Shown: positions 1,954-63,158 of the stretch, piece by piece
How positions within the stretch are numbered: the first letter of the stretch is position 1
Layout: each line of letters starts with the position of its first letter
Assembly (NCBI GenBank): GCA_965224245.1
Contig: OZ245046.1
Span: forward strand, 2,176,001 to 2,240,000
DNA from: Candidatus Eiseniibacteriota bacterium
Lineage (GTDB): Bacteria > Eisenbacteria > RBG-16-71-46 > CAZAMP01
Direction of reading: 5' to 3'
Length of the DNA: 64,000 bases
Made by a program: the position numbers and the translations under genes
The notes under the pieces: generated by a model
The model's input: the letters and a program-made list of their open reading frames with translations, nothing else
Told to the model about the DNA's origin: nothing
The model's database searches: none

Positions 1954-3195
1954 GTGCCACGGGGAACCCGAGGCAGCATTCTCGTGACGACGGTGCTCTT
2001 GACCTGTCTCGTCACGACCGTCCTCACCGCAGCCGCCTACCGCACGAGCCTCCGGGTCCGGGCCCGGCACGAGGAGAACGACGGCGCGTCGGCCCGCGCC
2101 TACGCGGTGGGCGCCCTCGAGGCGGGCGTTCGACGGGCCGCGGATCTCGGCGACTGGCGCAACACCATCACGACCGACACCTGGGTCGGCGACTACCCCT
2201 TCGGCGACGGCGCGTTCTTCATCCGGGCGTCCGATCCGACCGACGGCATCGTCCTCGCGAACGGGGTCGGCGGCTCCGCATCGACCGATACGCTGCTGAT
2301 GGAGGCCCGCGCGACCTGCGGGGACGTCGAACGCGCGGTGGCCGCACGCTACGTCCCCCTGCCCCATCCGGCGACCGCGTCGGCGATCTTCGCCGACGAC
2401 CTGGTGACGCTCCAGGGCGGTCGCATCGAGGGCGACGTGCGCGCGAACTCCCACGTGACCGATCCCACCGGTACCGCCGTCGTCGTCGGCGACATCACGA
2501 CGGTGACCGGAAGCACGGTCTCTCCGATCCTCGACGATGGGGACACCGACGTCTTCTACGAGGCGAGCAAGCTCGTGCCGCCGTACGTGACGCCGGCGTG
2601 GTTTCAGGCCGTCGGGGAGGAGATCACGTTGCCCGCCGACGGGGGTCTCCGCAACGTGACCATCACGCCGGAGTCGAACCCGTACGGATCCCCGAACCCC
2701 GAGGGCATCTACTGGATCGACGGCGGCGGCGGGACCATCACCCTGGAGCAGACCGTCATCGTGGCCTGCCTGGCCATCGTGAACGTCAGCGACGTTCTCG
2801 TCCGGGAGGATCTGTTCAGCACGTCGGATCCCGGAACGAGCTTCTATCTTCGTTCGCCCGAGCCGGAACGGCTACCGGCGCTCGTCGTCGACGGCCGCAT
2901 CGACATGGCGATCCACGGCGGTGAGCCGCTGTCCTACGAGCTCGGTGGCCAGACGCACTACGTGACCTCGGAGATCGTCGGCGTGATCTACGCCTCCGAT
3001 CGCTTCCGGGGCCCGCAGAAGAACGGCAGCGGATCGCTCGAGATGTCGGGCGCGATCATCGCGTCCGAGGTGCAGATCTGGTCGACCGACTTCACGCTCA
3101 GACACGACCCCGCCCTGAACACCTCGGCCCTGGTCGAGCTCGAGAGCAGCGAGCTCCGGCCCGTGCCGGGGACCCTGCAGGATACGACGCCATGA
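1954..3195 (+). CDS. PilX/GspK-like minor pilin with a beta-solenoid-like C-terminal region
   Basis: RG|SILVTTVLL (no Glu5, as in PilX/GspK) and an ARAYAVGALEAG motif. GTG at 1954 chosen just after the upstream stop; the ORF track starts at 1918. Confidence 0.7.
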   Translation: MPRGTRGSILVTTVLLTCLVTTVLTAAAYRTSLRVRARHEENDGASARAYAVGALEAGVRRAADLGDWRNTITTDTWVGDYPFGDGAFFIRASDPTDGIVLANGVGGSASTDTLLMEARATCGDVERAVAARYVPLPHPATASAIFADDLVTLQGGRIEGDVRANSHVTDPTGTAVVVGDITTVTGSTVSPILDDGDTDVFYEASKLVPPYVTPAWFQAVGEEITLPADGGLRNVTITPESNPYGSPNPEGIYWIDGGGGTITLEQTVIVACLAIVNVSDVLVREDLFSTSDPGTSFYLRSPEPERLPALVVDGRIDMAIHGGEPLSYELGGQTHYVTSEIVGVIYASDRFRGPQKNGSGSLEMSGAIIASEVQIWSTDFTLRHDPALNTSALVELESSELRPVPGTLQDTTP

Positions 3196-49170: not shown

Positions 49171-49767
49171 ATGGACGATCAACGCCCACGGTCCGACGAT
49201 CCCGCGCTCGACGCCACGCAGCTCCTCGTGCGCATCGGAGACGGAGACACGGCTGCGATCGACGATCTCCTGCCTCTCGTCTACGATCAGCTCCGCGCGA
49301 TCGCGGCCCGCTCGTTTCGCGGTCAGCCGGCCGAGCACACGCTCCAGCCAACCGCGCTCGTCCACGAGGCGTTCCTGAAGATGATCCGGAACCCCGACGC
49401 GCAGTGGAAGAACAGCGGTCACTTCTTCGCGGTGGCGGCCACCGCCATGCGGCAGATCCTGACCGACCATGCGCGCGGCAAAGCCCGCGCCAAGCGCGGC
49501 GGTGACGCGGAGCACGTCTCGCTGGGTCAGGTCGAGTCGCCGTCGGGCAACGAGCGCCTCGACATCCTGGACCTCGAGCGGGCACTGACCCGACTGGCCT
49601 CGTTCGACCCCCGACAGGCCCGGATCATCGAGCTCTGGTTCTTCGCCGGGCAGACCGTCGAGGAGATCGCCGGCATCCTCCAGGTGTCGAGCCGCACGAT
49701 CCGCCGCGACTGGATGCACGCCCGTGCGTGGCTGAACCGCGAGCTCGCTGGAACCGGACCTGCATGA
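49171..49767 (+). CDS. ECF sigma factor of the kinase-associated type (ECF43/TIGR02999-like)
   Basis: LLPLVYDQLRAIA, HTLQPTALVHEAFLK, HFFAVAATAMRQILTDHAR and RDWMHARAWL motifs. Confidence 0.92.
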   Translation: MDDQRPRSDDPALDATQLLVRIGDGDTAAIDDLLPLVYDQLRAIAARSFRGQPAEHTLQPTALVHEAFLKMIRNPDAQWKNSGHFFAVAATAMRQILTDHARGKARAKRGGDAEHVSLGQVESPSGNERLDILDLERALTRLASFDPRQARIIELWFFAGQTVEEIAGILQVSSRTIRRDWMHARAWLNRELAGTGPA

Positions 49768-52376
49768 GCGCCGACGAACGCTTCGCCGAGGTCAAGGCGA
49801 TCTTCGATGCCGCGCTCGATCTTCCGGCCTCCGAGCGCACGGCGTTCCTGCGTGAGCGGTGCGGAGCCGACGACGCGCTCCGCCGCGACGTCGAGTCGCT
49901 GCTCGCGTTCGAGGAATCGGGCGACGGGTTCCTCAAGGACGCGCACCGCGGCGCGGGCCCCGCGATGCTGGCCGATGAGATGGCCATCGCATCCGATGCC
50001 AGCATCCCCGATCGGATCGCCCAGTACCGGATCCTGCGCAAGATCGGCGAGGGCGGGATGGGCGTGGTCTACGAGGCCGAGCAGGAGAGCCCGCGACGGC
50101 GCGTCGCGCTCAAGGTGATCCGCTCGGCGTTCCTCACCGACGAGGTCGTCAAGCGCTTTCGCCACGAGGTGCAGCTGCTCGGACAGCTCGACCACGCCGG
50201 CGTGGCCCACATCTACGAGGCGGGCACGGCCACCATTCGGGACAGCTCGTGGCCGTTCTTCGCGATGGAGCTCGTGGACGGTCGCCCCCTCGACCACCAC
50301 GCGACCTCGGTCGGTCTCTCGGTCGAGGAGCGGCTGGAGCTCCTGGCCCGCGTGGCCGATGCCGTCCACCACGCTCACGCGAAGGGCATCGTGCACCGCG
50401 ATCTGAAGCCCGCCAACGTGCTCGTGAAGTCGGTGCGAAGCGACGAGACCACCTCGCCCACCGGAGAGCCGGATCGGATCGGTCAGCCCAAGGTCCTCGA
50501 CTTCGGCGTGGCCAGGGCCACCGACGCCGACATCCAGATCACCACCGTGCAGACACACGCCGGGCAGATCGTGGGGACCCTCGCCTACATGAGCCCCGAG
50601 CAGGTCGAGGGCCGGCGGGACATCGACCGGCGATGCGACGTGTACTCCCTCGGCGTGATCCTGTACGAGCTGCTGGCGGGTCGACGGCCGTTCGACCTGA
50701 CGGGGCGGCCGGTGGCCGAGGCGGCCCGGATGATCGTCGACGACGATCCGACCTCGCTCGGCGACGACGTGCCATCGCTTCGCGGAGACGTGGCCACCAT
50801 CGTGGCCAAGGCGATGGAGAAGGACCGCGCGCGCCGCTACGACTCGACGGCCGAACTCGCCGAGGACATCCGCCGCTTCCTGCGCTCCGAGCCGATCAGC
50901 GCCCGCCCCGCGAGCCGCTCGTATCGCGTACGGCGCTTCGTCCGGCGGAACCGTCCGCTGGTGGCCGGACTCGCTGCCGCGTTCGTGGCGCTCGCCGCGG
51001 GGCTCGTGGCCACGACGGTACTCCTGTTGAAGACGCGCGAGGAGCGGGACGCGAAGGTCGCGGCGCTCGAACGCTCGGACGCGGTGACCGAGTTCCTGTC
51101 GGACATGCTGCTCGCGGCGGACCCCGGCCTCGAGGGCCGTGACGTGACCGTCCTCGAAGTGCTCGACCAGGCGAGCGCGGACGTCGGCGTGCAGTTCGCG
51201 GACCGGCCCGTTCTGGAGTCGGATCTCCGCGGCGTGATCGGCAACACCTACAACTCCCTCGGCGAGTACGCCCGGGCCGACTCGCACCTGACGGTCGCGC
51301 TCGCGCTCGCCACCGAGCACATGAGCCCCGACGACCCGCGCATCTACGAGATCAGCTCGATCCTGGGGGCGGTACGGTACTTCCAAGGGGATTACGAGTC
51401 GGCCCTCGAGTACTTCAACCACCATCTGGACGGATACGAGCGGGGCGCCCTGGAGAGGGACGGGTCCTACTCGGTCACCGTGCAGAACGTCGCGTTCCTG
51501 ACCATGAGCCTCGGGCACCTGGACGACGCGCGCGAGCTGTTTCAGACGGCTCTCGACTACTCCACCGAGCACGACGGTCCGGACGCCGAGGCGACCATCA
51601 CCATCGGCGCGAATCTCGCGATGCTCGAGCATCGCGCGCGGCGCTACGACGAGGCCGAGCGAATCTATCTCGACGCCATCGAGCGCTCGCGCCGGGTGCG
51701 CGGAAACGACCACCCCGAGACGCTTCTGCTGGTGGCCAACCTCGCGTCGCTGTACGGGCGCGTCGGACGGGAGGCCGAGGCGCTCCCGCTGCTCCAGGAG
51801 ACGTTGACCCAGCAGGAGTCGGTGTTCGGCCCCTCGCATTCGAAGACCCTGATCACGCTCGGCAACCTGGCCCAGTCGCTGGCCCGGGTCGGACGGACCG
51901 ACGAGGCGCGCACGCTCGTCGACGACGGGCTCGCGCGCTCGATCGAGGCCTATGGCGAGGGTGAACGCAGCACGCTCTTGATGACGGCCGCCAAGGCCGG
52001 CGTGCTGGATGCGTCGGGCGACCACGAGGGGGCGATCGCGCTCCTCGTCCCGAACCTCGCCGCGGTGCGAGCAACGATGGGCGACGGGTCGGACGCCGCC
52101 CGCCGCGACTGGTTCTCGATCCTGGCCGCCTATCGCGCGCTGGGCCGCGCCGACGACATCATCCGGGTGAGCCGGGAGTACGCCGACGCGATGGCGGCCG
52201 AGTTCGGCGAGGCGCACCCTCGAACGGTGGAGGCCCGGGTCACGCTCGCCCGCGCCTACCGCGACGACGATCGGCCCGAGCTCGCCGAGCGTGAGCTCGC
52301 CACGGCCCGGGCACAGGTCGGTGAGGCCACCGTCGACTCGGTGAACCGAGCGCTCGACGAGCGCCGCCACCGCTGA
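49764..52376 (+). CDS. Membrane Hanks-type Ser/Thr kinase with extracytoplasmic TPR repeats
   Basis: GEGGMGVVY, VALK, HRDLKPAN, DFG and YMSPE motifs, one TM helix, then G.DHP.T-type TPRs. ATGA overlap with the ECF gene. Confidence 0.95.
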   Translation: MSADERFAEVKAIFDAALDLPASERTAFLRERCGADDALRRDVESLLAFEESGDGFLKDAHRGAGPAMLADEMAIASDASIPDRIAQYRILRKIGEGGMGVVYEAEQESPRRRVALKVIRSAFLTDEVVKRFRHEVQLLGQLDHAGVAHIYEAGTATIRDSSWPFFAMELVDGRPLDHHATSVGLSVEERLELLARVADAVHHAHAKGIVHRDLKPANVLVKSVRSDETTSPTGEPDRIGQPKVLDFGVARATDADIQITTVQTHAGQIVGTLAYMSPEQVEGRRDIDRRCDVYSLGVILYELLAGRRPFDLTGRPVAEAARMIVDDDPTSLGDDVPSLRGDVATIVAKAMEKDRARRYDSTAELAEDIRRFLRSEPISARPASRSYRVRRFVRRNRPLVAGLAAAFVALAAGLVATTVLLLKTREERDAKVAALERSDAVTEFLSDMLLAADPGLEGRDVTVLEVLDQASADVGVQFADRPVLESDLRGVIGNTYNSLGEYARADSHLTVALALATEHMSPDDPRIYEISSILGAVRYFQGDYESALEYFNHHLDGYERGALERDGSYSVTVQNVAFLTMSLGHLDDARELFQTALDYSTEHDGPDAEATITIGANLAMLEHRARRYDEAERIYLDAIERSRRVRGNDHPETLLLVANLASLYGRVGREAEALPLLQETLTQQESVFGPSHSKTLITLGNLAQSLARVGRTDEARTLVDDGLARSIEAYGEGERSTLLMTAAKAGVLDASGDHEGAIALLVPNLAAVRATMGDGSDAARRDWFSILAAYRALGRADDIIRVSREYADAMAAEFGEAHPRTVEARVTLARAYRDDDRPELAERELATARAQVGEATVDSVNRALDERRHR

Positions 52377-52629
52377 CGTCCAACGCCACTCGCCGGTCGC
52401 CCCACACAACCGAATTCTCCAAAACACCTTACGCGATTCGAAGCCCACCGCGGTCGAGCCTGATCGATCGTCGATCGACTTTTTTGGCCACTCGCTCCGG
52501 GAAACGTCGTGAACCGGGAGACGACCCGGGCCAGCCCGCCCGGATTCTCCCACGGCAGCGACACCGGCCCCGCCCGACGCGACCTCGAGGCCGCGAACCC
52601 CGGACGGGACCGGACCAGGAGGGAACACG

Positions 52630-55600
52630 ATGTTGGTACCGCACCGGATCCGGACCGGGCCCGCGCTCATCGCCGGCCTCGCCGGGCTCCTGATCGCGGC
52701 CGCCGCAGAGGCGGCCCCACGCTCGATGGCCGAGGTCCCCGAGGAGCTCCGGCCCTACTTCGAGGAGGTGGAGACGCCCGAAGGCACGTCCGCCGAGTTC
52801 CGCAGCGCGGCGGCGTTCGCGGTCAGCGCGACGTCGGGGGTCTACGAGGATCGCGTCGAGGTCACGTGGACCGCCGCGCCCGATCTCGACGTGTACTTCG
52901 TGGTCTCGCGCGACGGTGAGGATCTCACCTGGCTGTCCTCTCAGGATTCCGTGTACGCCGATACCGACACCGAGCCACTGCGCTCACACGACTACGCCGT
53001 GGTCATGGTCCACCTCGACTTCGGTCCCATCGAGGTGGGTCGCGACACCGGGTACATCGGCTTCTTCGCCCCCGCCAATCTCGTGGCCACCGACTATACC
53101 GACCTGACCGGAGTGTCCCTCACCTGGGAGGACCGCTCCTCCATCGAGCACGGCTATCTCGTACGCCGGGACGGCGTGATCATCGATTCGCTCGCCGCCG
53201 ACACCGGCATGTATCACGATGCGACCGCCGACCCCCTGGCCACCGCGGAGTGGTGCGTGACCGCGTATCGCACCGACGGCACCGAGACCGCCCAGCTCGG
53301 CTCGGTGAGCACGGGCTCGTCGCCATACCGCGTGGCGGTCGAGGACTGGCCGGCATCGTTCGGTGAGGGGAGCCCCGGCGTCTACGCGTTCACGGTGGAT
53401 AGCGCCGGGTTCAACGTGTTCGACGTCGTCGATCCCACGAACCCCGTCCACATGGGCTCGGCCGCCGTCCCCGGCGTGGACGTGGCCCAGGGCGCCGACG
53501 ACTTCGGCTACGTCGTCGACGGCGCCGGCATGCTGACCGTACTCCACGTCTACGACCCGATGGCACCGGCCGTGTTCGCCACCGAGATGACGCCGGGCGA
53601 TGCCCTGGGCGTCGTGGCCATCGCACCCCCGGGGGAGGTCGGAACGGAGTACGTCGCGGTTGCCGACGGCAGCGCCGGCGTGAGCTTCTTCTATGTGGGC
53701 AAGGGATCCTCGTTCCTGACCCAGACCGTGCCGACGTTCGGCAGCGCAAACGCGGTCTACCAGCACCACGGTCTTCTGTACGTGGCCGACGGCATGGGCG
53801 GCGTCACCATCATCGACGTCAGCGATCTCAACTTCGCGGGACCGTCGATCGTGGGCAACCTCGGACTCTTCGACATCGTCGACGTCGCCGTCTACGGCGA
53901 GCGCGGCGTGGCCATCGACGGCGGCGGCGCGGTGACCGTCATCGACGTCTCCGATCCGACCAGCCCATCTGTCGTCATTACCACCGTCGGGCCGGCGGAC
54001 GACGTCGAGATGTACGGTACGCGCGCCTTCGTCAAGGGGGCGGGCACGGGGCTGCGGATCATCGAGACCGCGGGCGGCGTCGAGGTCAGCACGCTGCCCA
54101 CGGCGTACGAGGTGCAGGGCTTCTCGCGTCTGGGCGACCTCCTGTACGTCGCAACCGGAGACGGCCTGTCCGGTGAGCTCCTGGTGTTCGACCTGCCGTT
54201 CGCGGTGACCTCGGGGTCGACGTGCGACCTCGGCGTCGCGGGCACGATCGAGCCTCCCTCTGACATCTCGGCCACCTACGGCCGCCATCTCGACCGCACC
54301 GTCATCAGCTGGACCGACAACTCCGAGATCGAGCTGGGCTTCAGGGTCCAGAGCGCCGACCTGGTCGTCGACGTGGACCTGCCGCCCGACACCGAGAGCT
54401 ACGAGGACTTCGCCCCCAGCGGTGGTGCGGAGCGTGAGTACGCCGTGTACGCGCTCGATCCCGACGGGAACCCGGTCCTGGGCGGCACGGCCACCGGAAT
54501 CTTCGGAGGCGGCTTCCTGCCCGCCCCCACCGGCGTCCTGGCCTCCGACCTCGAGGACTCCGACGAGTACGTCCGCGTGACCTGGAACGACACCGACGAC
54601 GAGGATTCCTACGTCATCTACCGCAAGCTCATCGACTTCCCCGGCGATCCGGACAGCGTGGGCGTGGTGAGCGCCGGCGTCACGACGTTCGACGACACCA
54701 CGGTTCCGGCGGAGATGCAGTACGACTACACCGTCGTGGCCCGTACCGACGACGGCGGTTACTCCGTGCACAGCGACGCCGATGCCGGCGAGCGCGAGGA
54801 CATTCTGCCTCCGGCCAACGTCAGCGCCACCGACGGCGACCACGAGACCCACACCACGATCACCTGGGAGAACCGCTCGGCGAAGACGGTGCTCTTTCGG
54901 ATCCTCCGAGATGGCGCGCCCATCCAGACCGTGACCGGCACCGCGACCTCGACCGAGGATCCCCTCGGCGTCCCGGGCCAGGAGTACATCTACCGCGTCG
55001 AAGCGGTCTCCGCGACCGGCATCGCGTCGGGTCACGAGGACCTCGGCTCGCGCGTGCTGATCGCGCCCACGAACGTCTCGGCCGAGGACGGCGTGGCCGA
55101 GAACCGGATCCGGATCGACTGGCAGGACCACTCGAGTGCGGAGTCGGGATACCGGATCTACCGGGACGCCGTGCCGATCGCCACCGTGGGCGAGAATCGC
55201 ACGACGTACACCGACCTGACGGCCGTCCCCGGCACGTCGCACACGTACGACGTGGCGGCCTACGACGCGCTCGGAGAGTCGGAGTACGGCACCGACACCG
55301 GATTCCGGAACCTCGTCCCACCGGCCAACCTCTCGGCCTCGGACGGCACGTCGGAGACCGAGGTCATTCTGACCTGGGACGACGTGTCGGGGGCCGAGAC
55401 CGGCTACCAGATCCGGCGCGACGGCGTGCTGATCGGGAGCACCAGCGCCTCCACCTTCATCGACCTCGGAGGGAGCCTCGGGACGACGTACTCGTATGCG
55501 GTGGTCGCGTTCGACGCGTACGGAAGCTCCGACGAAGCGACGGACGACGGCTACACGGCCATCCTCGCGCCCGGATCGCTGTCGGCGAGTACGACCTACT

Positions 55601-58600
55601 CCGACCGCATCGTCCTCAGCTGGACCGACGAGTCCGATCTCGCCGACGAGTACCGGATCTACCGGGACGGCTTGCTGCTCGCCACCCTCGGCGGCAACTC
55701 CATCTACTACGAGGACACTGGCCCGCCGTCGTCGGACGTCACGTACACCTACTGCGTGACCTCCCACGACAACCCGACCGGCGCCGAGGCCACGGCGTGT
55801 GCGGACGGCATCATGCCGTCGACCGCGCTCACCTTCGGCACGATGGCCGTCGCCGCATCGAGCGGCGACTACGACAACCGCGTCCGGGTCGAGTGGACGA
55901 GCGGCGACCCCGGTGGCCTCGACGAGTTCGAGATCTACCGGGACGGCCAGAAGATCGAGACCGTCGGCGCCACGGCGTCGTCCTACAACGACTTCGACGC
56001 AGTGCCGGGCGCCGCGCACCGCTATGGCGTGGCCGGCGTGAACTCGTCGGGCACGTTCCTCGAGTCGGGTGAGGATCCGGGCTGGATCCCCGCCGACGGC
56101 GCGATCAACGGACGCATCACCACGCGGGCCGGCTCGCCGGTCGACGGCGTGGACGTGTGCCTGACCCCGTCGCTCGGACAGGCCATCTCGCTCGACGGTC
56201 GCGAGGGCCACGCAGAGATGCCGTCGCGGTCCGACCTGATCGAGGCCTTCACGGTCGAGTACTGGATGAAGAGCAGCGAGACGAGCCTCGGCGGCTCGGT
56301 CTTCTCGTACGCGACCTCGGCCTACGCCGACCAGGTGGTCATCCGCCGGCAGACGAGCGGTAACCCGTTCGCCGTCACCATCCGCGGCATCACCGCGAGC
56401 TACGACGTGGATCCGTATGACGGGGACTGGCACCACGTCGCGGTGGCCTGGGACGGCACGGCCAATGGCGCGGGCCCGAACCTCTGGGTCTACATCGACG
56501 GCGTGCTGGAGGGCCAGGGCTCGTTCCACGACGGTGCGGTCCTGAACTCCCCCGGCACCACGATGTTGGGACAGAACCACAACTTCGACGGCTCGCTGGT
56601 GGCGGGAACCGCCTATCGCGGCCTCCTCGACGAGGTCCGGGTGTGGAACGTCGCGCGGCCCCAGGACGACGTCGTCGCCGACATGGACCGGTCGCTCACG
56701 GGTACCGAGGACGGTCTCGTCTACTTCTGGCCGATGAGCGAGGGTGGCGGCACGGCCATCGCCGACCTGACCGGCAACGGCGTCGACGGTGCGCTCGAAG
56801 GCGACGTCGACTGGACGACGGCGGCCGCCCCGCTGACCGTCTGCGCCGCTTCGGATCTCGACGGCAACTACGCCCTGACCGGGATCCGCTACGGCGCGGC
56901 CACCGACTTCCGGGTCACGCCGTCGGGTGACGGTCGTGCGTTCGACCCGGCGTTCACGAACATCACGCTCGACACGCAGAGCCCGGTCGCGAACGAGATC
57001 AACTTCAACGACGTCTCGGCGTTCACGCTGAGCGGACTCATCTCCTACGACCTGGCCTCCTCGTGCGGGCAGCCGGACGTGCCGCTGTACGTGGACGACG
57101 TGCTCGTGGGGACCTCGCGCGCCGACGGGACGTTCGCGGTGACGGTGCAGCCAGGCGACCACGTCCTGGAGCCACGACTGGACGGACACACGTTCGACCC
57201 CGCCACCTACGAGGTGAGCGTCAGCGCAGGCCTGGCCGGTCTCGACTTCTCGAACACGACCACGCGTACGCTCACCGGGCGAATTGGTGGCGGCTGCGAC
57301 GCCTCCATCGGCGAGTGGCGCTTCGATCTCGCGACCGAGAACGGGTGCTTCGCCACCACGATCCAGGCCGACGGCGCGTTCGAGCTCCAGCTTCCGCCGT
57401 TGCCGCTGGTGGCCACGGTGGATCAACTGACCGGCGTGGTACCGCCGCCCCTCGACGAGGCGGACGTCCTCCAGTTCTTCCAGAACGTGGGCTCGTACGA
57501 CGTCGACCTGACGTCGGGTGACCAGGATCTCGAGCTCGTCTACAAGGCGCCGCTCACGATGCAGGTGACGGGCTTCCCCGCGGCGTGCGGCGAGTTCTAC
57601 GACCCCGAGAGCGGCGTGACCGCGACCGCGGCACCCGTCATCGCACAGCTCACCTCGGTGCCGCTGACCATCAACGTGTTCGAGGACTACGGCACCGTGC
57701 AGTGCCCGGTGGACTCGGGAACGGTGACCATCTACGACGAGATCAAGGACGTGGCGGACACGCCGGTCGTGCTCGCCATCGTCGACGGCGTGGCCAGCTA
57801 CACCACGATCGGCAACAAGCCCAACGTGAGCCCCGGCCGGCGGGACGCACAGGGCAACGACCGCTCGTTCCAGAAGGCGATCACGTTCGCCGCCGAGGTC
57901 ACGGGACAGCCCGCGCTCGTGCAGACGAAGTGGGCGCTCGTCACCGGTGACCGGCCGCGGACGGGGACGTTCGTGACCGCCACCAGCGAGGAGATCCCGC
58001 TCTTGATCCTGCGTGACCCGCCCGGGGACGGCTCGGTGTCGACGCTCGAGCAGGAGACCACCTACAGCTACAACCTGGGCGGCATGATCCTCCGCTCGAT
58101 CACGGGCTCGATCGAGACCGCGATCAAGGCCGGGTTCGAGTTCGAGGCGGGGACGCTGTTCTTCTCCACCGAGAACGAGGTCGAGGTCGAGACCAGCCGC
58201 GGCTTCGAGATCGGCGCCTCGGCCAGCGCCTCGGGCGACCTGGAGTTCACGGTGACCACCACCGAGGAGTTCTCGACCTCCGACGAGCAGGTGTTCGTGG
58301 GACCCGACGCCGATCTGATCCTCGGCGTGGCCATGAACCTCCTGTTCGCCAAGACCGACGTGCTCGAAGTGGATCCGGCCACCTGCCAGATCCAGCGCTC
58401 GCAGACGGTGCGCTTCGGTGCGGACGCCGACAAGCCGTTCGAGACCGTGTACCTGTACACGACGTCCCACATCGCGAACGTGGTCATGCCGCAGCTCGAG
58501 GATCTGGCCGAGCTGGAGCCGGATCGCGCGTTCGAGTTCCTGAGCTACCGGGACAACTGGCAGGATCACCTGGATCTGAACGACGCGCTCCGTACCGAGG

Positions 58601-61600
58601 CGCTGGAGAACCCGACCGCGAACCGCACGTTCAGCGCGGGCGCCGAGTACGCGTACAGCCACACCACCACCAACACCCAGTCGTACGCGTGGGAGGTGAA
58701 CGTCTACACCGAGGACACGTTCTCGACCCAGATCGGGTTCGAGATCGCGGGCAGCGGCGCCACGACGACGCTGACGGCGGCGTTCCGATCGGAGCTCTCG
58801 CTGGGTGGCGGCGGCTCGACCGAGGAGTCGATCACGGTGGGCTACTCGCTCGCCGACGACGACCCGGGCGACTCGTTCACGTTCGACGTGGCCAACGATC
58901 CCCTGTACGGAACGCCGGTGTTCGGCGTCCGGAGCGGGCGGAGCTCGTGTCCCCTCGAGGCCGGCACGCAGGAGCGTGACGCGGTGTCGATGAACATCGA
59001 GCCTCCGTTCGTGGAGGCGCCCGACGGCGGCGTGGCCGAGTACGTGCTCTCGATCACGAACGACAGCCCGTCCGACGACGCGCGCGAGTACCAGCTCCGC
59101 GCCATCCAGACCTCCAACCCGGGCGGCGCGGTGATCCGCGTCAACGGCTCGCCGCTCGACAACTCGGTGTCGTTCTTCATCGATCCGGGCCAGACCCACA
59201 ACGCGACCCTCACCGTGGAGCGCGGCCCGTCGCAGTACTTCTACGAGGACCTCCAGGTGCAGGTCGTGGCTCCGTGCGAGTACGAGCTCTGGGAGGCCGG
59301 CGGCACGCTGGCCGTGGCGGACACGGTCAAGTTCAGCGTGGCCTTCGACTCCCCATGCTCGAACATCTCGCTGATCTCGCCGTCGTCGGGCTGGTCGTTC
59401 GACCTGGCCGAGTCCGCGGCCACGAGCGACACGCTGAGCCTCCTCCTCGACAACTTCGAGCTCGCGATCTCCGAGACCGACTCGATCCAGTCGGTGGGCG
59501 CGGAGTACCGGCGGGTCGACACCGACACCTGGTTCATCATCGACGAGGTGGCCGCGGCCGACGTTCCGGTGTACCCGGGCGGTCACGCGCTCGAGGGCGA
59601 GCCCAAGAGCGTGTCGATCCCCTGGGACGTCTCGGGCGTCGTGGACGGCCAGTACGAGGTGCGCGCGTTCACGCGCTGTGAGGGCGGACGCGTGTCGAGC
59701 TTCGCGGCCACCGGCCGCATCGACCGGGCGGCGCCGCAGCTCTTCGGCGATCCGTACCCGGCCGACCTCGTGTTCTCGCTGGGTGATCGGATGGGCTTTC
59801 GGTTCGACGAGGCCATCGACTGCGAGACCGTGAACGCGACCTCGATGACGCTGGAGGTGGTCGAGGCCGGCGGCGACACGCCGGTCGCCGTCCAGACCAC
59901 GTGTAGCGGCAAGACGATCCTGATCACGCCGACGAACCCGACCATCGGCGAGCTCGAGGGCAAGACGCTGCGGGCCACCGCCCGCGCCACGCTGGCCGAC
60001 CTCGCGGGCAACCCGCTGGGGACCGACCAGACGTGGACGTTCACGGTCGCGCAGAGCGCGTTCGCGTGGCGCGACGCCTCGGTGTTCGAGGCCGTCCCCT
60101 ACCGCGCCGGCGGCACCGTCGACGCGTCGCTCGTGAACGGCCTCGAGGACGACCGACCGTACGAGCTCCGGAACGTGGCCGAGTGGCTGACCCCGGATGC
60201 GCCGGCGGGAACCGTGGTCGCGGGTCAGGAGTCGCTGGTCAGCTTCTCGATCGCCGACTCGCTCCAGGTGAGCACGACCTACACGGACACGCTGGAGGCG
60301 GTCTCGCCGAGCATCGCCGATCCCCAGATCGTGACCCAGCTCATCGTCCGCGTGGACGTGGGCTGCGTGACGCCCCAGTGGGAGATGACGGCCAGCGGCT
60401 TCGAGTACTCGATGACCGCCGTCGTGGAGCTCGTGATCGACTCGCAGATCTCCGACGACGGGAACGATCTCGTGGCCGCGTTCGTGGGCGGCGAGCTCCG
60501 GGGACTCGGAAGCCCCGTGTACGTGCCCGGCCTGGATCGACACCTCGTGTTCATGAACGTCTTCTCGAACCGCGCCGCGGGCGAGAACGTGAGGTTCCGG
60601 ATCTACGACGACTCGGACTGCCGGCTCTACCCGTCGGCGGACAACTTCCTCCGCTTCGAGTCCGATCGCCGTCACGGCACGCCGGAGACGCCGATCGTGC
60701 TCGCGGCGGTCGAGTCGCTTCCGTCCGACATCCAGGCCATCCCCGTGGGACCGGGCTGGACCTGGTTCTCGCTGAACCTGTTCGACGACCTCGACATGAC
60801 GGTGGTGTCGATCCTGGGCGACCTCAACGCCACCGACGGCGACGTCATCAAGTCGCAGGCCGGCTTCGCGCAGTACGACGACGGTCTCGGCTGGACGGGC
60901 TCGCTCACCGAGCTCGACGTGATGCGGAGCTTCGCGATCGACGTGGCCGAGTCGGGCACGATCCTCCACGTGGGCGATCCGGCCCAGGCCGACATCCCGA
61001 TCGCGATCGTGGACGGCTGGAACTGGGTGGGCTACCCCGCCGCGACCGGCCAGGACGTGGACACCGCGCTCTCGAACCTCGTGGCCACCGACGGCGACGT
61101 GATCAAGAGCCAGTACGGGTTCGCGGAGTACGTGGCCAGCCTCGGCAGCTGGGTGGGCACGCTGACCACGATGGAACCCGGCCTCGGCTACAAGCTCCAC
61201 GTGGACGACGCGCTCCTGTCCGGCGGGTGGCTCATCTACCCGATCCCGACCGCGCCGGTGGCGCGTCCGTTCGCGGCGGTGCCGACGGTGTCGATCTCCT
61301 CGAACGGCGCGACGGCGTCCAAGGAATCGAAGGGATCGACGGCATCCGCAGCGTCCGCGGCGTCCACCGCTTCGACCGGGATCACCGTTCGTCCGGCCGG
61401 CGGCGACGTCGCGAAGGCCGGGGCGCATCTCGACACCGGAAGCCGTCCCGACTGGCGACTCACCGAGGGACGCCAGTTCAACATGACGATCGTGGCCCGG
61501 GTCTCGATCGACGACGCCGTGGTCGACACCGAGGGCGGCGTCGTCGGCGCGTTCGTCGGCGACGAGCTCCGCGGCGTGGGCGAGGTCCAGTACGTGTACG

Positions 61601-62076
61601 GGCTCGGCGAGCACGTCGCGTTCGTGATGGTGCACAGCAACAGCGTGGCCGGTGAGGAGGTCACCTTCCGCTACTACGACGCCGGGACCGACGCGGTGCT
61701 CGACGTGCTCGAGACGCTCAGCTTCGAGGCCGACCTCTCGCTCGGCAGCCTCCACGAGCCGATGGCGCTCCGGGCCGTCGGCGAGGAGGATGCGGCCCCG
61801 GTGGGGCCGGCGGCGTTCGTGCTGTCGCCCCTGGCACCGAACCCCGCGCGCGGGGGCCTCGTGCAGATCCGCTGGGCGATGCCCTCGGAGTCGCGCGTCG
61901 TCGTCCGCATGTACGACGTGAACGGACGCGACGTGGGCACCGTGGTCGACGAGGTGCTGCCCGCCGGGTGGTACTCGCGCGAGGTCGACACGTCGCGGAT
62001 GGCCAGCGGCGTCTACTTCACGCGGATGCAATCGACCGGCTTCTCGCAGATGCGAAAGCTCCTGTTGATCAAGTAA
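52630..62076 (+). CDS. Giant secreted multidomain protein (3148 aa): FN3 repeats, LVIVD propeller, LamG, ILRDPPG core, Ig-like domains, T9SS/FlgD-like CTD
   Basis: Signal peptide; nine FN3-like repeats; LYVADG..G..IIDVSD LVIVD repeats; FTVEYW...WHHVA...LDEVRVWN LamG; C-terminal PNP...YDVNGR.V...SGVYF.R...KLLLIK. Confidence 0.9.
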   Translation: MLVPHRIRTGPALIAGLAGLLIAAAAEAAPRSMAEVPEELRPYFEEVETPEGTSAEFRSAAAFAVSATSGVYEDRVEVTWTAAPDLDVYFVVSRDGEDLTWLSSQDSVYADTDTEPLRSHDYAVVMVHLDFGPIEVGRDTGYIGFFAPANLVATDYTDLTGVSLTWEDRSSIEHGYLVRRDGVIIDSLAADTGMYHDATADPLATAEWCVTAYRTDGTETAQLGSVSTGSSPYRVAVEDWPASFGEGSPGVYAFTVDSAGFNVFDVVDPTNPVHMGSAAVPGVDVAQGADDFGYVVDGAGMLTVLHVYDPMAPAVFATEMTPGDALGVVAIAPPGEVGTEYVAVADGSAGVSFFYVGKGSSFLTQTVPTFGSANAVYQHHGLLYVADGMGGVTIIDVSDLNFAGPSIVGNLGLFDIVDVAVYGERGVAIDGGGAVTVIDVSDPTSPSVVITTVGPADDVEMYGTRAFVKGAGTGLRIIETAGGVEVSTLPTAYEVQGFSRLGDLLYVATGDGLSGELLVFDLPFAVTSGSTCDLGVAGTIEPPSDISATYGRHLDRTVISWTDNSEIELGFRVQSADLVVDVDLPPDTESYEDFAPSGGAEREYAVYALDPDGNPVLGGTATGIFGGGFLPAPTGVLASDLEDSDEYVRVTWNDTDDEDSYVIYRKLIDFPGDPDSVGVVSAGVTTFDDTTVPAEMQYDYTVVARTDDGGYSVHSDADAGEREDILPPANVSATDGDHETHTTITWENRSAKTVLFRILRDGAPIQTVTGTATSTEDPLGVPGQEYIYRVEAVSATGIASGHEDLGSRVLIAPTNVSAEDGVAENRIRIDWQDHSSAESGYRIYRDAVPIATVGENRTTYTDLTAVPGTSHTYDVAAYDALGESEYGTDTGFRNLVPPANLSASDGTSETEVILTWDDVSGAETGYQIRRDGVLIGSTSASTFIDLGGSLGTTYSYAVVAFDAYGSSDEATDDGYTAILAPGSLSASTTYSDRIVLSWTDESDLADEYRIYRDGLLLATLGGNSIYYEDTGPPSSDVTYTYCVTSHDNPTGAEATACADGIMPSTALTFGTMAVAASSGDYDNRVRVEWTSGDPGGLDEFEIYRDGQKIETVGATASSYNDFDAVPGAAHRYGVAGVNSSGTFLESGEDPGWIPADGAINGRITTRAGSPVDGVDVCLTPSLGQAISLDGREGHAEMPSRSDLIEAFTVEYWMKSSETSLGGSVFSYATSAYADQVVIRRQTSGNPFAVTIRGITASYDVDPYDGDWHHVAVAWDGTANGAGPNLWVYIDGVLEGQGSFHDGAVLNSPGTTMLGQNHNFDGSLVAGTAYRGLLDEVRVWNVARPQDDVVADMDRSLTGTEDGLVYFWPMSEGGGTAIADLTGNGVDGALEGDVDWTTAAAPLTVCAASDLDGNYALTGIRYGAATDFRVTPSGDGRAFDPAFTNITLDTQSPVANEINFNDVSAFTLSGLISYDLASSCGQPDVPLYVDDVLVGTSRADGTFAVTVQPGDHVLEPRLDGHTFDPATYEVSVSAGLAGLDFSNTTTRTLTGRIGGGCDASIGEWRFDLATENGCFATTIQADGAFELQLPPLPLVATVDQLTGVVPPPLDEADVLQFFQNVGSYDVDLTSGDQDLELVYKAPLTMQVTGFPAACGEFYDPESGVTATAAPVIAQLTSVPLTINVFEDYGTVQCPVDSGTVTIYDEIKDVADTPVVLAIVDGVASYTTIGNKPNVSPGRRDAQGNDRSFQKAITFAAEVTGQPALVQTKWALVTGDRPRTGTFVTATSEEIPLLILRDPPGDGSVSTLEQETTYSYNLGGMILRSITGSIETAIKAGFEFEAGTLFFSTENEVEVETSRGFEIGASASASGDLEFTVTTTEEFSTSDEQVFVGPDADLILGVAMNLLFAKTDVLEVDPATCQIQRSQTVRFGADADKPFETVYLYTTSHIANVVMPQLEDLAELEPDRAFEFLSYRDNWQDHLDLNDALRTEALENPTANRTFSAGAEYAYSHTTTNTQSYAWEVNVYTEDTFSTQIGFEIAGSGATTTLTAAFRSELSLGGGGSTEESITVGYSLADDDPGDSFTFDVANDPLYGTPVFGVRSGRSSCPLEAGTQERDAVSMNIEPPFVEAPDGGVAEYVLSITNDSPSDDAREYQLRAIQTSNPGGAVIRVNGSPLDNSVSFFIDPGQTHNATLTVERGPSQYFYEDLQVQVVAPCEYELWEAGGTLAVADTVKFSVAFDSPCSNISLISPSSGWSFDLAESAATSDTLSLLLDNFELAISETDSIQSVGAEYRRVDTDTWFIIDEVAAADVPVYPGGHALEGEPKSVSIPWDVSGVVDGQYEVRAFTRCEGGRVSSFAATGRIDRAAPQLFGDPYPADLVFSLGDRMGFRFDEAIDCETVNATSMTLEVVEAGGDTPVAVQTTCSGKTILITPTNPTIGELEGKTLRATARATLADLAGNPLGTDQTWTFTVAQSAFAWRDASVFEAVPYRAGGTVDASLVNGLEDDRPYELRNVAEWLTPDAPAGTVVAGQESLVSFSIADSLQVSTTYTDTLEAVSPSIADPQIVTQLIVRVDVGCVTPQWEMTASGFEYSMTAVVELVIDSQISDDGNDLVAAFVGGELRGLGSPVYVPGLDRHLVFMNVFSNRAAGENVRFRIYDDSDCRLYPSADNFLRFESDRRHGTPETPIVLAAVESLPSDIQAIPVGPGWTWFSLNLFDDLDMTVVSILGDLNATDGDVIKSQAGFAQYDDGLGWTGSLTELDVMRSFAIDVAESGTILHVGDPAQADIPIAIVDGWNWVGYPAATGQDVDTALSNLVATDGDVIKSQYGFAEYVASLGSWVGTLTTMEPGLGYKLHVDDALLSGGWLIYPIPTAPVARPFAAVPTVSISSNGATASKESKGSTASAASAASTASTGITVRPAGGDVAKAGAHLDTGSRPDWRLTEGRQFNMTIVARVSIDDAVVDTEGGVVGAFVGDELRGVGEVQYVYGLGEHVAFVMVHSNSVAGEEVTFRYYDAGTDAVLDVLETLSFEADLSLGSLHEPMALRAVGEEDAAPVGPAAFVLSPLAPNPARGGLVQIRWAMPSESRVVVRMYDVNGRDVGTVVDEVLPAGWYSREVDTSRMASGVYFTRMQSTGFSQMRKLLLIK

Positions 62077-62084
62077 GCCCCAAC

Positions 62085-62119
62085 CGGCGAGCCGGGCGCC
62101 CCGCGCGTCCGGCTCACCG
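62085..62119 (+). terminator. Strong stem-loop after the giant gene (terminator or mRNA stabiliser)
   Basis: 15-bp stem cggcgagccgggcgc/gcgtccggctcaccg with one mismatch and one G-U; no U tract. Confidence 0.4.
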
Positions 62120-62141
62120 CGCTCGAACACGGAGAGACGTC

Positions 62142-63158
62142 ATGCTGAAGACACGACGACACCGAGCGGGACGCCGGCGGGGGCTCCCCTTCGCGATCGC
62201 CGCCACGGCGATGTGGCTGGCCTCGGGATCGACCGTGGCCGCGGGATCGGCCCTGGCCGCGGACGGGCCCGCGGTGACGCCGACGGAGAAGGGCATCGGC
62301 ACCGCCGATCAGTCCCAGCGCGGCGAGACCTGCACGACGACGATGCAGAACCACGACGACACGTTCGAGAACGCCTACGCGTGGGTCTACGGCGGTGTGG
62401 CCGCCCCCACCTGGGGCGCCTTCGCCGAGCCCTTCGAGGGCTCGTTCGAGATCTGCGAGGTGCAGCTCTTCCTGACCCAGATCGGCAATCAGGCCGGACA
62501 GACGATGGACGTGTTCGTGTGGCGCGACGATCGCACCGGCAACCCGGGCGCGGTGGTCGCGCAGGTCCTCGACGTGGATCCGGGTCCGATCACGACGTGG
62601 CCCGAGGTCACGCGCGTGGACGTGCCGGTGTCGGCCATCGTCGACGACAACTGGTGGGTCGGCTGGTGGGGCAACTGGCCCGGCGCCCAGGCGGGCTGGC
62701 TCGCCGCGGCGGACGAGGACGGCGTGGACGTCGGTCCGCGGACACGCATCAACTCGGGGCTCGGCTATCCGGCGGGATGGGATCATCCCAACGTGGTCCT
62801 GTCCTGGGCGAATGCGAAGAGCCTCGGGATCCAGGTGGCCGGAGCGGAGATTCTCGGGGCGGGCGATGCGTCGGTGACGCCGCCCGTGGTGCTCGGGGCG
62901 CCGAGGCCGAATCCGTTCGGGGCGTCGACGTCGATCGGGTTCTCACTGGAGGCCGAATCGACGGTGCGGCTGGCGGTCTACGACGGGGCCGGTCGGCTCG
63001 TGCGGACGCTCGCGGATGGGTCATTCCCGAGCGGCGGGCACCGCGCGTCCTGGGACGGGGTGACCGAGGCGGGTCGCCATGCGGCGCCGGGGGTGTACTT
63101 CGTCCGGCTGGAGGCCGGAACGACGCGGTCGGTGCAGAGGCTGGTGCTGGCCTGGTGA
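62142..63158 (+). CDS. Secreted protein with a jelly-roll-like domain and a C-terminal FlgD-Ig/T9SS-like domain
   Basis: GGAGAG RBS; Arg-rich signal peptide; PNPF...VYDGAGRLVRTL...WDG...G....PGVYFVRL. Confidence 0.85.
   Translation: MLKTRRHRAGRRRGLPFAIAATAMWLASGSTVAAGSALAADGPAVTPTEKGIGTADQSQRGETCTTTMQNHDDTFENAYAWVYGGVAAPTWGAFAEPFEGSFEICEVQLFLTQIGNQAGQTMDVFVWRDDRTGNPGAVVAQVLDVDPGPITTWPEVTRVDVPVSAIVDDNWWVGWWGNWPGAQAGWLAAADEDGVDVGPRTRINSGLGYPAGWDHPNVVLSWANAKSLGIQVAGAEILGAGDASVTPPVVLGAPRPNPFGASTSIGFSLEAESTVRLAVYDGAGRLVRTLADGSFPSGGHRASWDGVTEAGRHAAPGVYFVRLEAGTTRSVQRLVLAW

Follow-up and report, generated by a model that had tools for sequence, protein, structure and literature searches.

In the MACPF/CDC fold, a bent four-stranded central sheet is flanked by two helical clusters that refold into hairpins, and both this family and the gasdermins have two neighboring hairpins per protomer; aerolysin-type toxins, with their elongated beta-sheet fold, have one. 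Among surface proteins of the Fibrobacteres–Chlorobi–Bacteroidetes (FCB) group, the giant protein GhpA is described, in the part of the preprint available to us, as a heptameric grappling hook of a type IX secretion system (T9SS) that has 52 immunoglobulin-like (Ig-like) repeats and bundles through them (bioRxiv 10.1101/2024.01.29.577165). Here we describe a conserved, unannotated module in a 3148-residue protein of Candidatus Eiseniibacteriota bacterium, encoded in a stretch of 64,000 nucleotides that we call the window (assembly GCA_965224245.1, contig OZ245046.1, positions 2,176,001 to 2,240,000 of the forward strand). An earlier interpretation of the same DNA, made from the letters alone and referred to below as the sequence-only reading, had proposed that the region is a two-hairpin pore-forming domain and had compared it with MACPF/CDC, gasdermin, aerolysin and protective antigen. 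We find that its two hairpins are real and that their amphipathic pattern is a property of a large family; membrane insertion is the function that we rank first, tentatively, and a kinship to those toxin families did not emerge from any significant Pfam (78 members, E<=10), PDB sequence or fold match.

Two long hairpins on a compact core

Translation of window positions 58006-58863 (+ strand) yields residues 1793-2078 of the giant protein and confirms the text quoted by the sequence-only reading, namely ILRDPPGDGS, the two Ser/Thr/Gly/Glu-rich segments and their AGTLFF and FEIAG turns. Two alignments are used throughout: A2, with 60 sequences covering residues 1740-2240 (query numbering plus 1739 gives protein numbering), and A3, with 78 sequences of the 326-residue module alone. 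Structures were predicted with AlphaFold2, with confidence given as the predicted local distance difference test (pLDDT). The module, its parts and the domain that follows it are these:

57988..58965, + strand: the conserved module, residues 1787-2112 (1-326 in domain numbering); matched by neither Pfam nor NCBIfam, and unannotated as the sequence-only reading had inferred; AlphaFold2 models
58006..58035, + strand: motif 1, ILRDPPGDGS, at the root of hairpin 1; family consensus ILRDPPGDxS
58066..58251, + strand: hairpin 1, residues 1813-1874 (domain 27-88); from couplings, a cysteine pair, alternation runs and column composition
58462..58602, + strand: core helix-turn-helix, residues 1945-1991; AlphaFold2 helices 206-223 and 225-252 (query numbering), pLDDT ~84-95
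58648..58851, + strand: hairpin 2, residues 2007-2074 (domain 221-288); from the module-only AlphaFold2 model, the coupling register and span length
58840..58890, + strand: motif 2, GYSLADDDPGDSFTFDV, at the exit of hairpin 2; consensus GYxLSDDDxGDFFSVDV
58942..58953, + strand: SSCP of the conserved SSCPWE motif, whose cysteine co-occurs with that of PCEY in the next domain
58978..59349, + strand: Ig-like (macroglobulin/PapD-like) domain after the module, residues 2117-2240; from fold matches found with VIA

The module has a compact core, composed of a beta-sheet and a helix-turn-helix, from which two hairpins of ~60-70 residues project alongside each other. Close to the core, the arms are polar and rich in Ser/Thr; farther out, they are strictly amphipathic. 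Both tips are uncharged and Gly-rich, that of hairpin 1 being aromatic too. The amphipathic arms comprise domain positions 42-54 and 61-79 in hairpin 1, with the tip AGTLFF, and 235-253 and 258-270 in hairpin 2, with the tip AGSG and a Ser/Thr-rich base.

What is the evidence that these segments pair as hairpins? A mean-field coupling analysis of 294 sequences (effective number 261) ranks the pair 27-88 first and places seven of the 14 top arm pairs of hairpin 1 exactly on the register i+j=115; for hairpin 2, the register i+j=509 is recovered from the base (222-287) through to the tip (252-257). A cysteine at domain position 27 is always accompanied by one at position 88, and the reverse: the pair is complete in 31 of 31 cases in A3 and, in a set of 221 further family proteins, in 115 of 115. 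This pairing implies that roughly half of the family has a disulfide bridging the base of hairpin 1; in the giant protein described here, the two positions are Ser1813 and Thr1874. Taken with the family alternation runs described below, the registers and the cysteine pair bear out the earlier claim of two long amphipathic hairpins: both segments are real, long beta-hairpins.

The same analysis shows how the two hairpins lie relative to one another. Strong couplings 17-287 and 19-285 set the root of the outgoing arm of hairpin 1 beside the root of the returning arm of hairpin 2, and weaker, register-consistent couplings tie all four arms (A to D along the chain) together, with A-D sums of 301-308, B-C sums of 314-318 in eight of the 11 pairs that reach the 99th percentile, and constant offsets for A-C and B-D, so the hairpins run side by side over their whole length. 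A few couplings connect the arms to the core (167-251, 173-244 and 118-264, from hairpin 2 to helix 1 or the core strand). At an effective 261 sequences, these couplings do not choose between an in-plane sheet of four strands, stacking of the hairpins face to face and inter-protomer contacts.

Around the hairpins, the family retains a fixed order of motifs: ILRDPPGDxS before hairpin 1; then TTxExFSTS, LNxxFAxTD, HIxxxLIPQL and NRSFSAGA; and after hairpin 2, GYxLSDDDxGDFFSVDV, YGTPVF and SSCPWE. In motif 1, the D, P, P, G and S are invariant across 60 sequences, and in motif 2, D290 and D295 are invariant and G285, D292, G294 and F297 at least 90% conserved across 78. Readings of DPPGD, DDDxGD and SSCPWE as thioester, isopeptide or autocleavage sites were considered and not adopted. 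The cysteines of SSCPWE and PCEY (Cys2107 and Cys2216; window 58948-58950 and 59275-59277) are counted in 69 and 66 sequences of A3, respectively, and occur together in 66, a co-occurrence that suggests an inter-domain disulfide. A further cysteine, Cys1919, is 95% conserved and has no obvious partner inside the aligned region.

An amphipathic pattern held by the family

Within the window's own sequence, the alternation of hydrophobic and polar residues is ordinary: the 15-residue period-2 hydrophobic moment of both segments is 2.12-2.13, compared with a mean shuffle maximum of 2.51. In the A2 profile, by contrast, the four longest strict alternation runs are the four hairpin arms, which reach 20, 21, 20 and 16 residues (query numbering 83-103, 106-127, 281-301 and 302-318), and the next longest anywhere in the alignment, flanking Ig-like domains included, are of 9, 8 and 7 residues. 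Alternation beyond chance is found at the level of the family and not in the single sequence. The alternating pattern reported by the sequence-only reading is thus present in the family profile (16-21 residues versus at most 9) and absent as a signal in the one sequence that it had read, and its conservation in homologues, which that reading had made a condition of its own survival, is seen in all four arms.

The pattern persists where the residues themselves do not: column entropy in A2 is highest in the hairpins, at 2.7-2.8 bits versus 1.2-2.0 elsewhere. By column composition, positions on the oily face are 60-95% hydrophobic with charge at or below ~5%, and the alternate positions are 40-76% charged. 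In the 221 further proteins, which are the best-scoring hits and not all of the 1991 representatives described below, charge occupies 4.3% of the oily face versus 38.8% of the polar face, a contrast that is partly circular because the face positions were picked on A3. Length in these same 221 proteins is held closely in the hairpins, with hairpin 2 spanning 74-75 residues in 180 and hairpin 1 spanning 81-82 residues in 99 and 85-86 in 73; the helical hairpin of the core varies from 38 to 83 residues.

The oily face is restricted to the distal 13-19 residues of each arm, and the Ser/Thr-rich bases are polar on both faces. At tip 1, Gly makes up 23% and charged residues 5%, versus 9% and 21% in the background; of 294 sequences, 245 keep the core of this tip free of charge and 191 have one or more aromatic residues there, and in 180 of the 294, tip 2 has at least two Gly. 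As read from these alignments, the arms are long enough to cross a bilayer and the pattern is conserved, a combination expected of beta-pore formers as a functional class.

Predicted structure of the module

AlphaFold2 run on residues 1740-2240 with A2 (pLDDT 82.7; predicted template-modeling score 0.77) returned a partial Ig-like domain, the module and a confident Ig-like domain at 2117-2240. The module core, at pLDDT 84-95, comprises a 20-residue strand, further strands and the helix-turn-helix, such that the 'helical spacer' described earlier does exist as a helix-turn-helix but is accompanied by a beta-sheet core rather than being helix alone. The hairpins are another matter; their confidence is low (~30-70), with the tip of hairpin 1 below 50, although in the full-context model the arms stay ordered as strands, at pLDDT 55-80. 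Run on the module alone with A3 (pLDDT 70.7), AlphaFold2 drew hairpin 2 as one extended hairpin, E221-253 plus E256-288, with 33-residue arms at pLDDT ~30. The conformation of hairpin 2 therefore differs between the two runs, and in both models the hairpins are mainly beta-strand, with one short helix, 293-296, in the model of residues 1740-2240. A three-copy homo-oligomer prediction of the 326-residue module with A3 scored 0.01 against a mark of 0.42 and is uninformative either way.

Does this structure resemble anything known? The downstream Ig-like domain does: VIA gives Z 10.4 to the macroglobulin domains of C3/C4 and 10.3 to domain III of HAP2, with root-mean-square deviations of 2.4-2.8 over ~100 residues. 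Such domains filled the fold searches made with the whole 501-residue model, at template-modeling (TM) scores below 0.2 or over residues 378-501 only, and those searches are uninformative for the module. For the predicted monomer of the module itself, the comparison with pore-former folds that the sequence-only reading had called for, made here with Foldseek and VIA, returned nothing in its favor: Foldseek had 0 hits at E<=0.001 in the PDB, VIA had a best Z of 4.0 among 48,161 chains and of 3.1 in a second look at 999 chains, none reaching 5, and the BFVD viral library had 0 hits at E<=0.001. The weak Foldseek rows are long-hairpin look-alikes such as a bovine ultralong complementarity-determining region H3 and the aerolysin and lysenin pores. 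As modeled, the module is without a fold match in the PDB searches run, and an absent match does not exclude a fold.

The giant protein and its relatives

The module is carried by a protein with the hallmarks of T9SS cargo:

52630..62076, + strand: gene for the 3148-residue giant T9SS cargo protein; from the open reading frame list, translation and Pfam domains
52630..52713, + strand: probable signal peptide for Sec, residues 1-28, with a basic start followed by a hydrophobic run and AEA|AP; read by eye
56194..56673, + strand: LamG/pentraxin-like lectin-fold domain, residues 1189-1348; Pfam Laminin_G_3 E 2.9e-15, Pentaxin E 6.3e-10
61837..62061, + strand: T9SS type A C-terminal sorting domain, residues 3070-3144 (3070-3145 for the Pfam and NCBIfam matches together)

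The sorting domain exceeds the curated cut-offs of both of its models (PF18962 Por_Secre_tail, 29.3 bits with a cut-off of 27; TIGR04183, 24.6 bits with a cut-off of 23) and is the sole NCBIfam match of the protein. Pfam places further domains along the chain, which are LVIVD (~382), fn3 (812-886), an RGI_lyase-type beta-sheet (1089-1137) and Big_5 (2382-2472), and has no model for residues ~1400-2380; the LVIVD, FN3 and LamG context that had been read from the letters, in a secreted protein, agrees with these domains and with the sorting domain. The window's genome (6.9 Mb; the window itself is ~70% G+C) has an SprA_N match of 80.7 bits in a 2363-residue open frame and 66 Por_Secre_tail matches. 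Given this translocon, these tails and its own sorting domain, the giant protein is T9SS cargo, predicted to be exported via Sec and T9SS and displayed on the cell surface.

Relatives are numerous. A phmmer search with residues 1740-2240 against the full library, clustered at 50% identity, found 1991 representatives at E<=0.001, of which 578 reach E<=1e-30; a word-indexed search found 343 proteins of 1731-5509 residues, nearly always with LamG-type domains and in many cases with a T9SS tail; and a scan of one genome per species, with motif 1 as the pattern, confirmed at least 538 loci. The loci listed come from Bacteroidota (Saprospiraceae, Rhodothermales, Cytophagales and others), Calditrichota, Eisenbacteria, Krumholzibacteriota, Latescibacterota, KSB1, Fibrobacterota, Cloacimonadota, Marinimicrobia, Ignavibacteriae and Chlorobiota, and cultured, non-pathogenic carriers include Neolewinella aquimaris, Flavilitoribacter nigricans and Phaeodactylibacter xiamenensis. 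In a sample of the window's own phylum, 11 of 201 genomes have the module, some in 2-3 copies and the window's genome in one; the closest named relatives are metagenome-assembled genomes labeled Candidatus Eisenbacteria and Gemmatimonadota. By these counts the module is widespread in large T9SS proteins of FCB-group bacteria. Stand-alone short forms were also sought: eight hits under ~1200 residues were examined and read as fragments because each has no signal-peptide-like start, no sorting tail, or neither. Literature searches on chosen terms found no description of the module in the text that they covered.

One relative is assigned to a eukaryote. A protein of Edaphochlamys debaryana (a green alga, as named by the source), P0118, has the core motifs LLILRDPPGDGS, FYLSDKDAGDAF and GRSRCPHEPGT over residues ~1049-1954. 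In it, a ~400-residue, Ala/Lys-rich and probably helical insertion replaces hairpin 1, and ~120 extra residues precede hairpin 2. Gene transfer and contamination are both possible origins of this copy.

What do the hairpins do?

We propose that the module is a membrane-inserting device resembling a beta-pore-forming toxin, and we put the probability of this reading at roughly 0.4. The layout would suit a stem, with a polar stalk, an amphipathic zone of bilayer length and uncharged tips; the pattern is kept without conservation of sequence and at fixed length; AlphaFold2 leaves the hairpins unsettled; and the chain is a secreted one with lectin and adhesion domains. It is for these reasons that we rank membrane insertion first. 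In the resting protein, the oily faces would be buried, and the LamG, FN3 and propeller domains would hold the module at a target membrane. On contact with that membrane, the hairpins might extend and insert tip first, and neighboring copies might then combine their hairpins into a beta-barrel pore in the manner of MACPF/CDC and the gasdermins, each protomer giving four strands. The giant protein would then be a contact-dependent cytolysin or a membrane anchor. That the module forms a true pore seems to us doubtful. Equally doubtful is the fullest version of the proposal, in which the module would be the first recognized member of a new family of beta-barrel pore formers, with its own fold and ~2000 clusters across the FCB group, borne in mid-chain on giant T9SS-displayed proteins that act as contact-dependent cytolysins against prey, competitors or eukaryotic hosts, each protomer contributing two disulfide-stapled hairpins (four strands).

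Several results weigh against membrane insertion. Pfam finds no significant pore-former family at E<=10 among the 78 members and no family at all, at that threshold, for the window's own module; the PDB sequence search gives a best single-sequence E of 0.36-0.79, which disappears with the family profile; and, as described above, the Foldseek and VIA searches match the central domain to no known pore-former fold. Discarded matches included CEL_III_C in three of the 78 members (best E 0.78), Toxin_10 in two (best E 0.22), which are Pfam noise, and PD-1 at E~0.6-1.6 in the PDB sequence search, which falls in the Ig-like tail. To these negatives may be added that the alternation in the single sequence is equalled by ordinary strands elsewhere in the giant protein; that no complete carrier under ~1500 residues was found, the shortest seemingly complete one having 1503; that the mid-chain position of the module, flanked by Ig-like domains and with ~1790 residues on its N-terminal and ~1040 on its C-terminal side, complicates the assembly of a ring; and that the family occurs in environmental bacteria, where giant proteins of this kind are usually read as adhesins. 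Finally, an oily face would also be expected of hairpins packed against one another or against the core.

This last point leads to the strongest alternative, a soluble beta finger in which the two hairpins cover each other's oily faces, or have them covered by the helix-turn-helix and the long strand of the core, to form a rigid, elongated, two-layer projection. Within a fibrillar adhesin, such a finger could act as spacer, joint or binding surface, its tips at most touching a ligand or membrane in the manner of a fusion loop, with no pore. We consider it only slightly less likely than membrane insertion; it accounts for the amphipathic pattern nearly as well. The mutual register of all four arms is what one would expect of two hairpins lying along each other and, with the couplings of hairpin 2 to helix 1 and the core strand, fits a compact soluble finger; the ordered arms of the full-context model (pLDDT 55-80), the Ig-like flanks and the adhesin-type domain architecture point in the same direction. 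Yet the strongest A-D arm pairs (39-269 and 43-261) are at polar-face positions, which would point apart in face-to-face stacking; a packed interface usually constrains sequence, and the arms are the most variable part of the module; AlphaFold2 has no single settled packing for them; and a spacer would have no need of polar bases, oily distal halves and charge-free tips.

An improbable third possibility is that the hairpins of several copies form a beta-barrel or collar outside any membrane, bundling the giant proteins into a multi-chain surface fiber, in a role like that of the GhpA hook. The presence of both A-D and B-C neighbor registers, which is impossible for a single open four-stranded sheet, would be explained by such an assembly, and heptamers of giant T9SS cargo are known from the available part of the GhpA preprint (bioRxiv 10.1101/2024.01.29.577165). 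The same text, however, has GhpA bundling via its Ig-like repeats and does not mention a module of this type (bioRxiv 10.1101/2024.01.29.577165). Moreover, the barrel is hard to build, as oily faces turned outward would make it insoluble and oily faces turned inward would make it a wide barrel with an interior that cannot be filled, and the couplings, being weak signals, may stem from a shared depth or level instead of from contact. The last alternative, ordinary Ig/beta-sandwich strands whose alternation arose by chance in one sequence, agrees with single-sequence windows that are no stronger than other strands or shuffles, but we reject it as extremely improbable, since alternation in the family profile runs for 2-3 times the length seen in the flanking Ig-like domains, both the registers of the hairpins and the cysteine pair are recovered, and the Ig fold is matched by the downstream domain 2117-2240 only and not by the central domain, in keeping with the sequence-only reading, which had named ordinary Ig strands as an outcome that would undo it.

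Why does the choice matter? If the module inserts into membranes, it would represent a structurally new family of beta-pore formers and a new pore scaffold, and a function would be at hand for a domain found in ~2000 protein clusters from Bacteroidota, Eisenbacteria, Gemmatimonadota, Calditrichota, Cloacimonadota and relatives, the carriers of which at present go by no more than 'LamG', 'Ig-like' or 'hypothetical'. It would also suggest that contact-dependent killing, or anchoring to membranes, is common among environmental FCB-group bacteria. If instead the hairpins form a soluble finger, the module is still an unannotated, widespread domain without a fold match in the PDB searches run.

Other features of the locus

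Near its C-terminus, the giant protein has two copies of a ~125-residue domain (AAFVGGELRG...VFMNVFSN...RFRIYD), at residues ~2578-2705 and ~2927-3057 (window ~60361-60744 and ~61408-61800), noticed by eye and as cross-matches and without a Pfam model. An antisense open frame of 3048 residues (window 52984-62130, - strand) spans the entire giant gene and is most likely an artefact of the ~70% G+C content; a second antisense frame (49527-52670), checked against Pfam, has no match.

Directly 3' of the giant gene, at window 62139-63158 (+ strand), a small gene encodes a ~340-residue protein whose first residues (MLKTRRH...) resemble a signal peptide and whose C-terminal T9SS domain is of the FlgD_ig type. 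Homologues of its body directly follow two giant paralogues (loci L097 and L101) of one related genome and are absent at four other loci checked; this small protein may be a partner of the giant one. Directly 5' of the giant gene lies a Ser/Thr protein kinase with tetratricopeptide repeats (window 49728-52376, + strand), and similar kinases adjoin homologous giant genes at two of six related loci (L098 and L101), an adjacency that could arise by chance in kinase-rich genomes.

Comparison with known systems

How, then, does the module compare with the systems that it calls to mind? In the fold searches, no meaningful scores were obtained for MACPF/CDC, gasdermin, aerolysin-family, protective antigen, TULIP/BPI or class II fusogen folds, and the protective antigen family is also missing from the Pfam lists for the module. 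As a giant, Sec/T9SS-exported, multi-Ig protein predicted to stand on the surface of an FCB-group cell, the protein described here is similar to GhpA (bioRxiv 10.1101/2024.01.29.577165, in the part available). It differs in having the module, of which that part of the preprint makes no mention (bioRxiv 10.1101/2024.01.29.577165), and GhpA is not among the fold-search results for the central domain.

Class II fusogens (HAP2, EFF-1, archaeal Fsx1 and viral Gc) offer a different analogy, for they too have two long beta insertions that form a finger with uncharged, Gly-rich and partly aromatic tips, followed by an Ig-like domain. They appear among the Foldseek hits of the 501-residue model at TM scores of 0.13-0.17 that rest on the generic Ig-like domain, and in the comparison with the three-domain fusexin fold and its domain I and II topology, the Ig-like domain alone matches (Z 8.5-10.3), the central domain having no match. 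Unlike class II fusogens, the giant protein has no transmembrane anchor and ends in a T9SS sorting domain.

By sequence, the module falls outside both MACPF/CDC and aerolysin/ETX-MTX2. The Pfam families listed at E<=10 for the 78 members include neither aerolysin (PF01117) nor ETX-MTX2 (PF03318). A protein-language-model search places Aerolysin, ETX_MTX2 and monalysin as the nearest named Atlas clusters at 0.87-0.89, which is below the 0.9 mark and a lead only, with 87-112 shared features where true members usually have at least 170. The aerolysin pore (Foldseek E 1.2e-2, TM 0.12, VIA Z 2.0) and the lysenin pore (E 2.1e-2, Z 2.6) align over the hairpin only. Aerolysin, ETX-MTX2 and monalysin nonetheless share with the giant protein a Ser/Thr-flanked amphipathic hairpin, long beta-strands and lectin-type targeting domains on the same chain; where they differ is in their single hairpin per protomer, compared with the two hairpins and the helix-turn-helix of the module.

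With MACPF/CDC and the gasdermins, the comparison turns on the number of hairpins. MACPF and thiol-activated cytolysin models are not among the 25 Pfam families listed, out of 34, for the 78 members and have no hit in the PDB sequence search; no MACPF/CDC chain reaches VIA Z>=2.8 or Foldseek E<=0.04, astrotactin-2 being at E 4.3e-2 and TM 0.10. Bacterial gasdermin chains appear with the single sequence in phmmer at non-significant E values of 0.68 and 0.79, are absent with the profile and are not listed in the fold searches. The hairpins of the module are mainly beta-strand in the AlphaFold2 models, as opposed to helical clusters, and a cleavable inhibitory domain was not seen in the giant protein. 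What the module does have in common with both families is two neighboring hairpins per protomer, making four strands that spring as a unit from a single core; in the module, the couplings 17-287 and 19-285 put the bases of the two hairpins next to each other.

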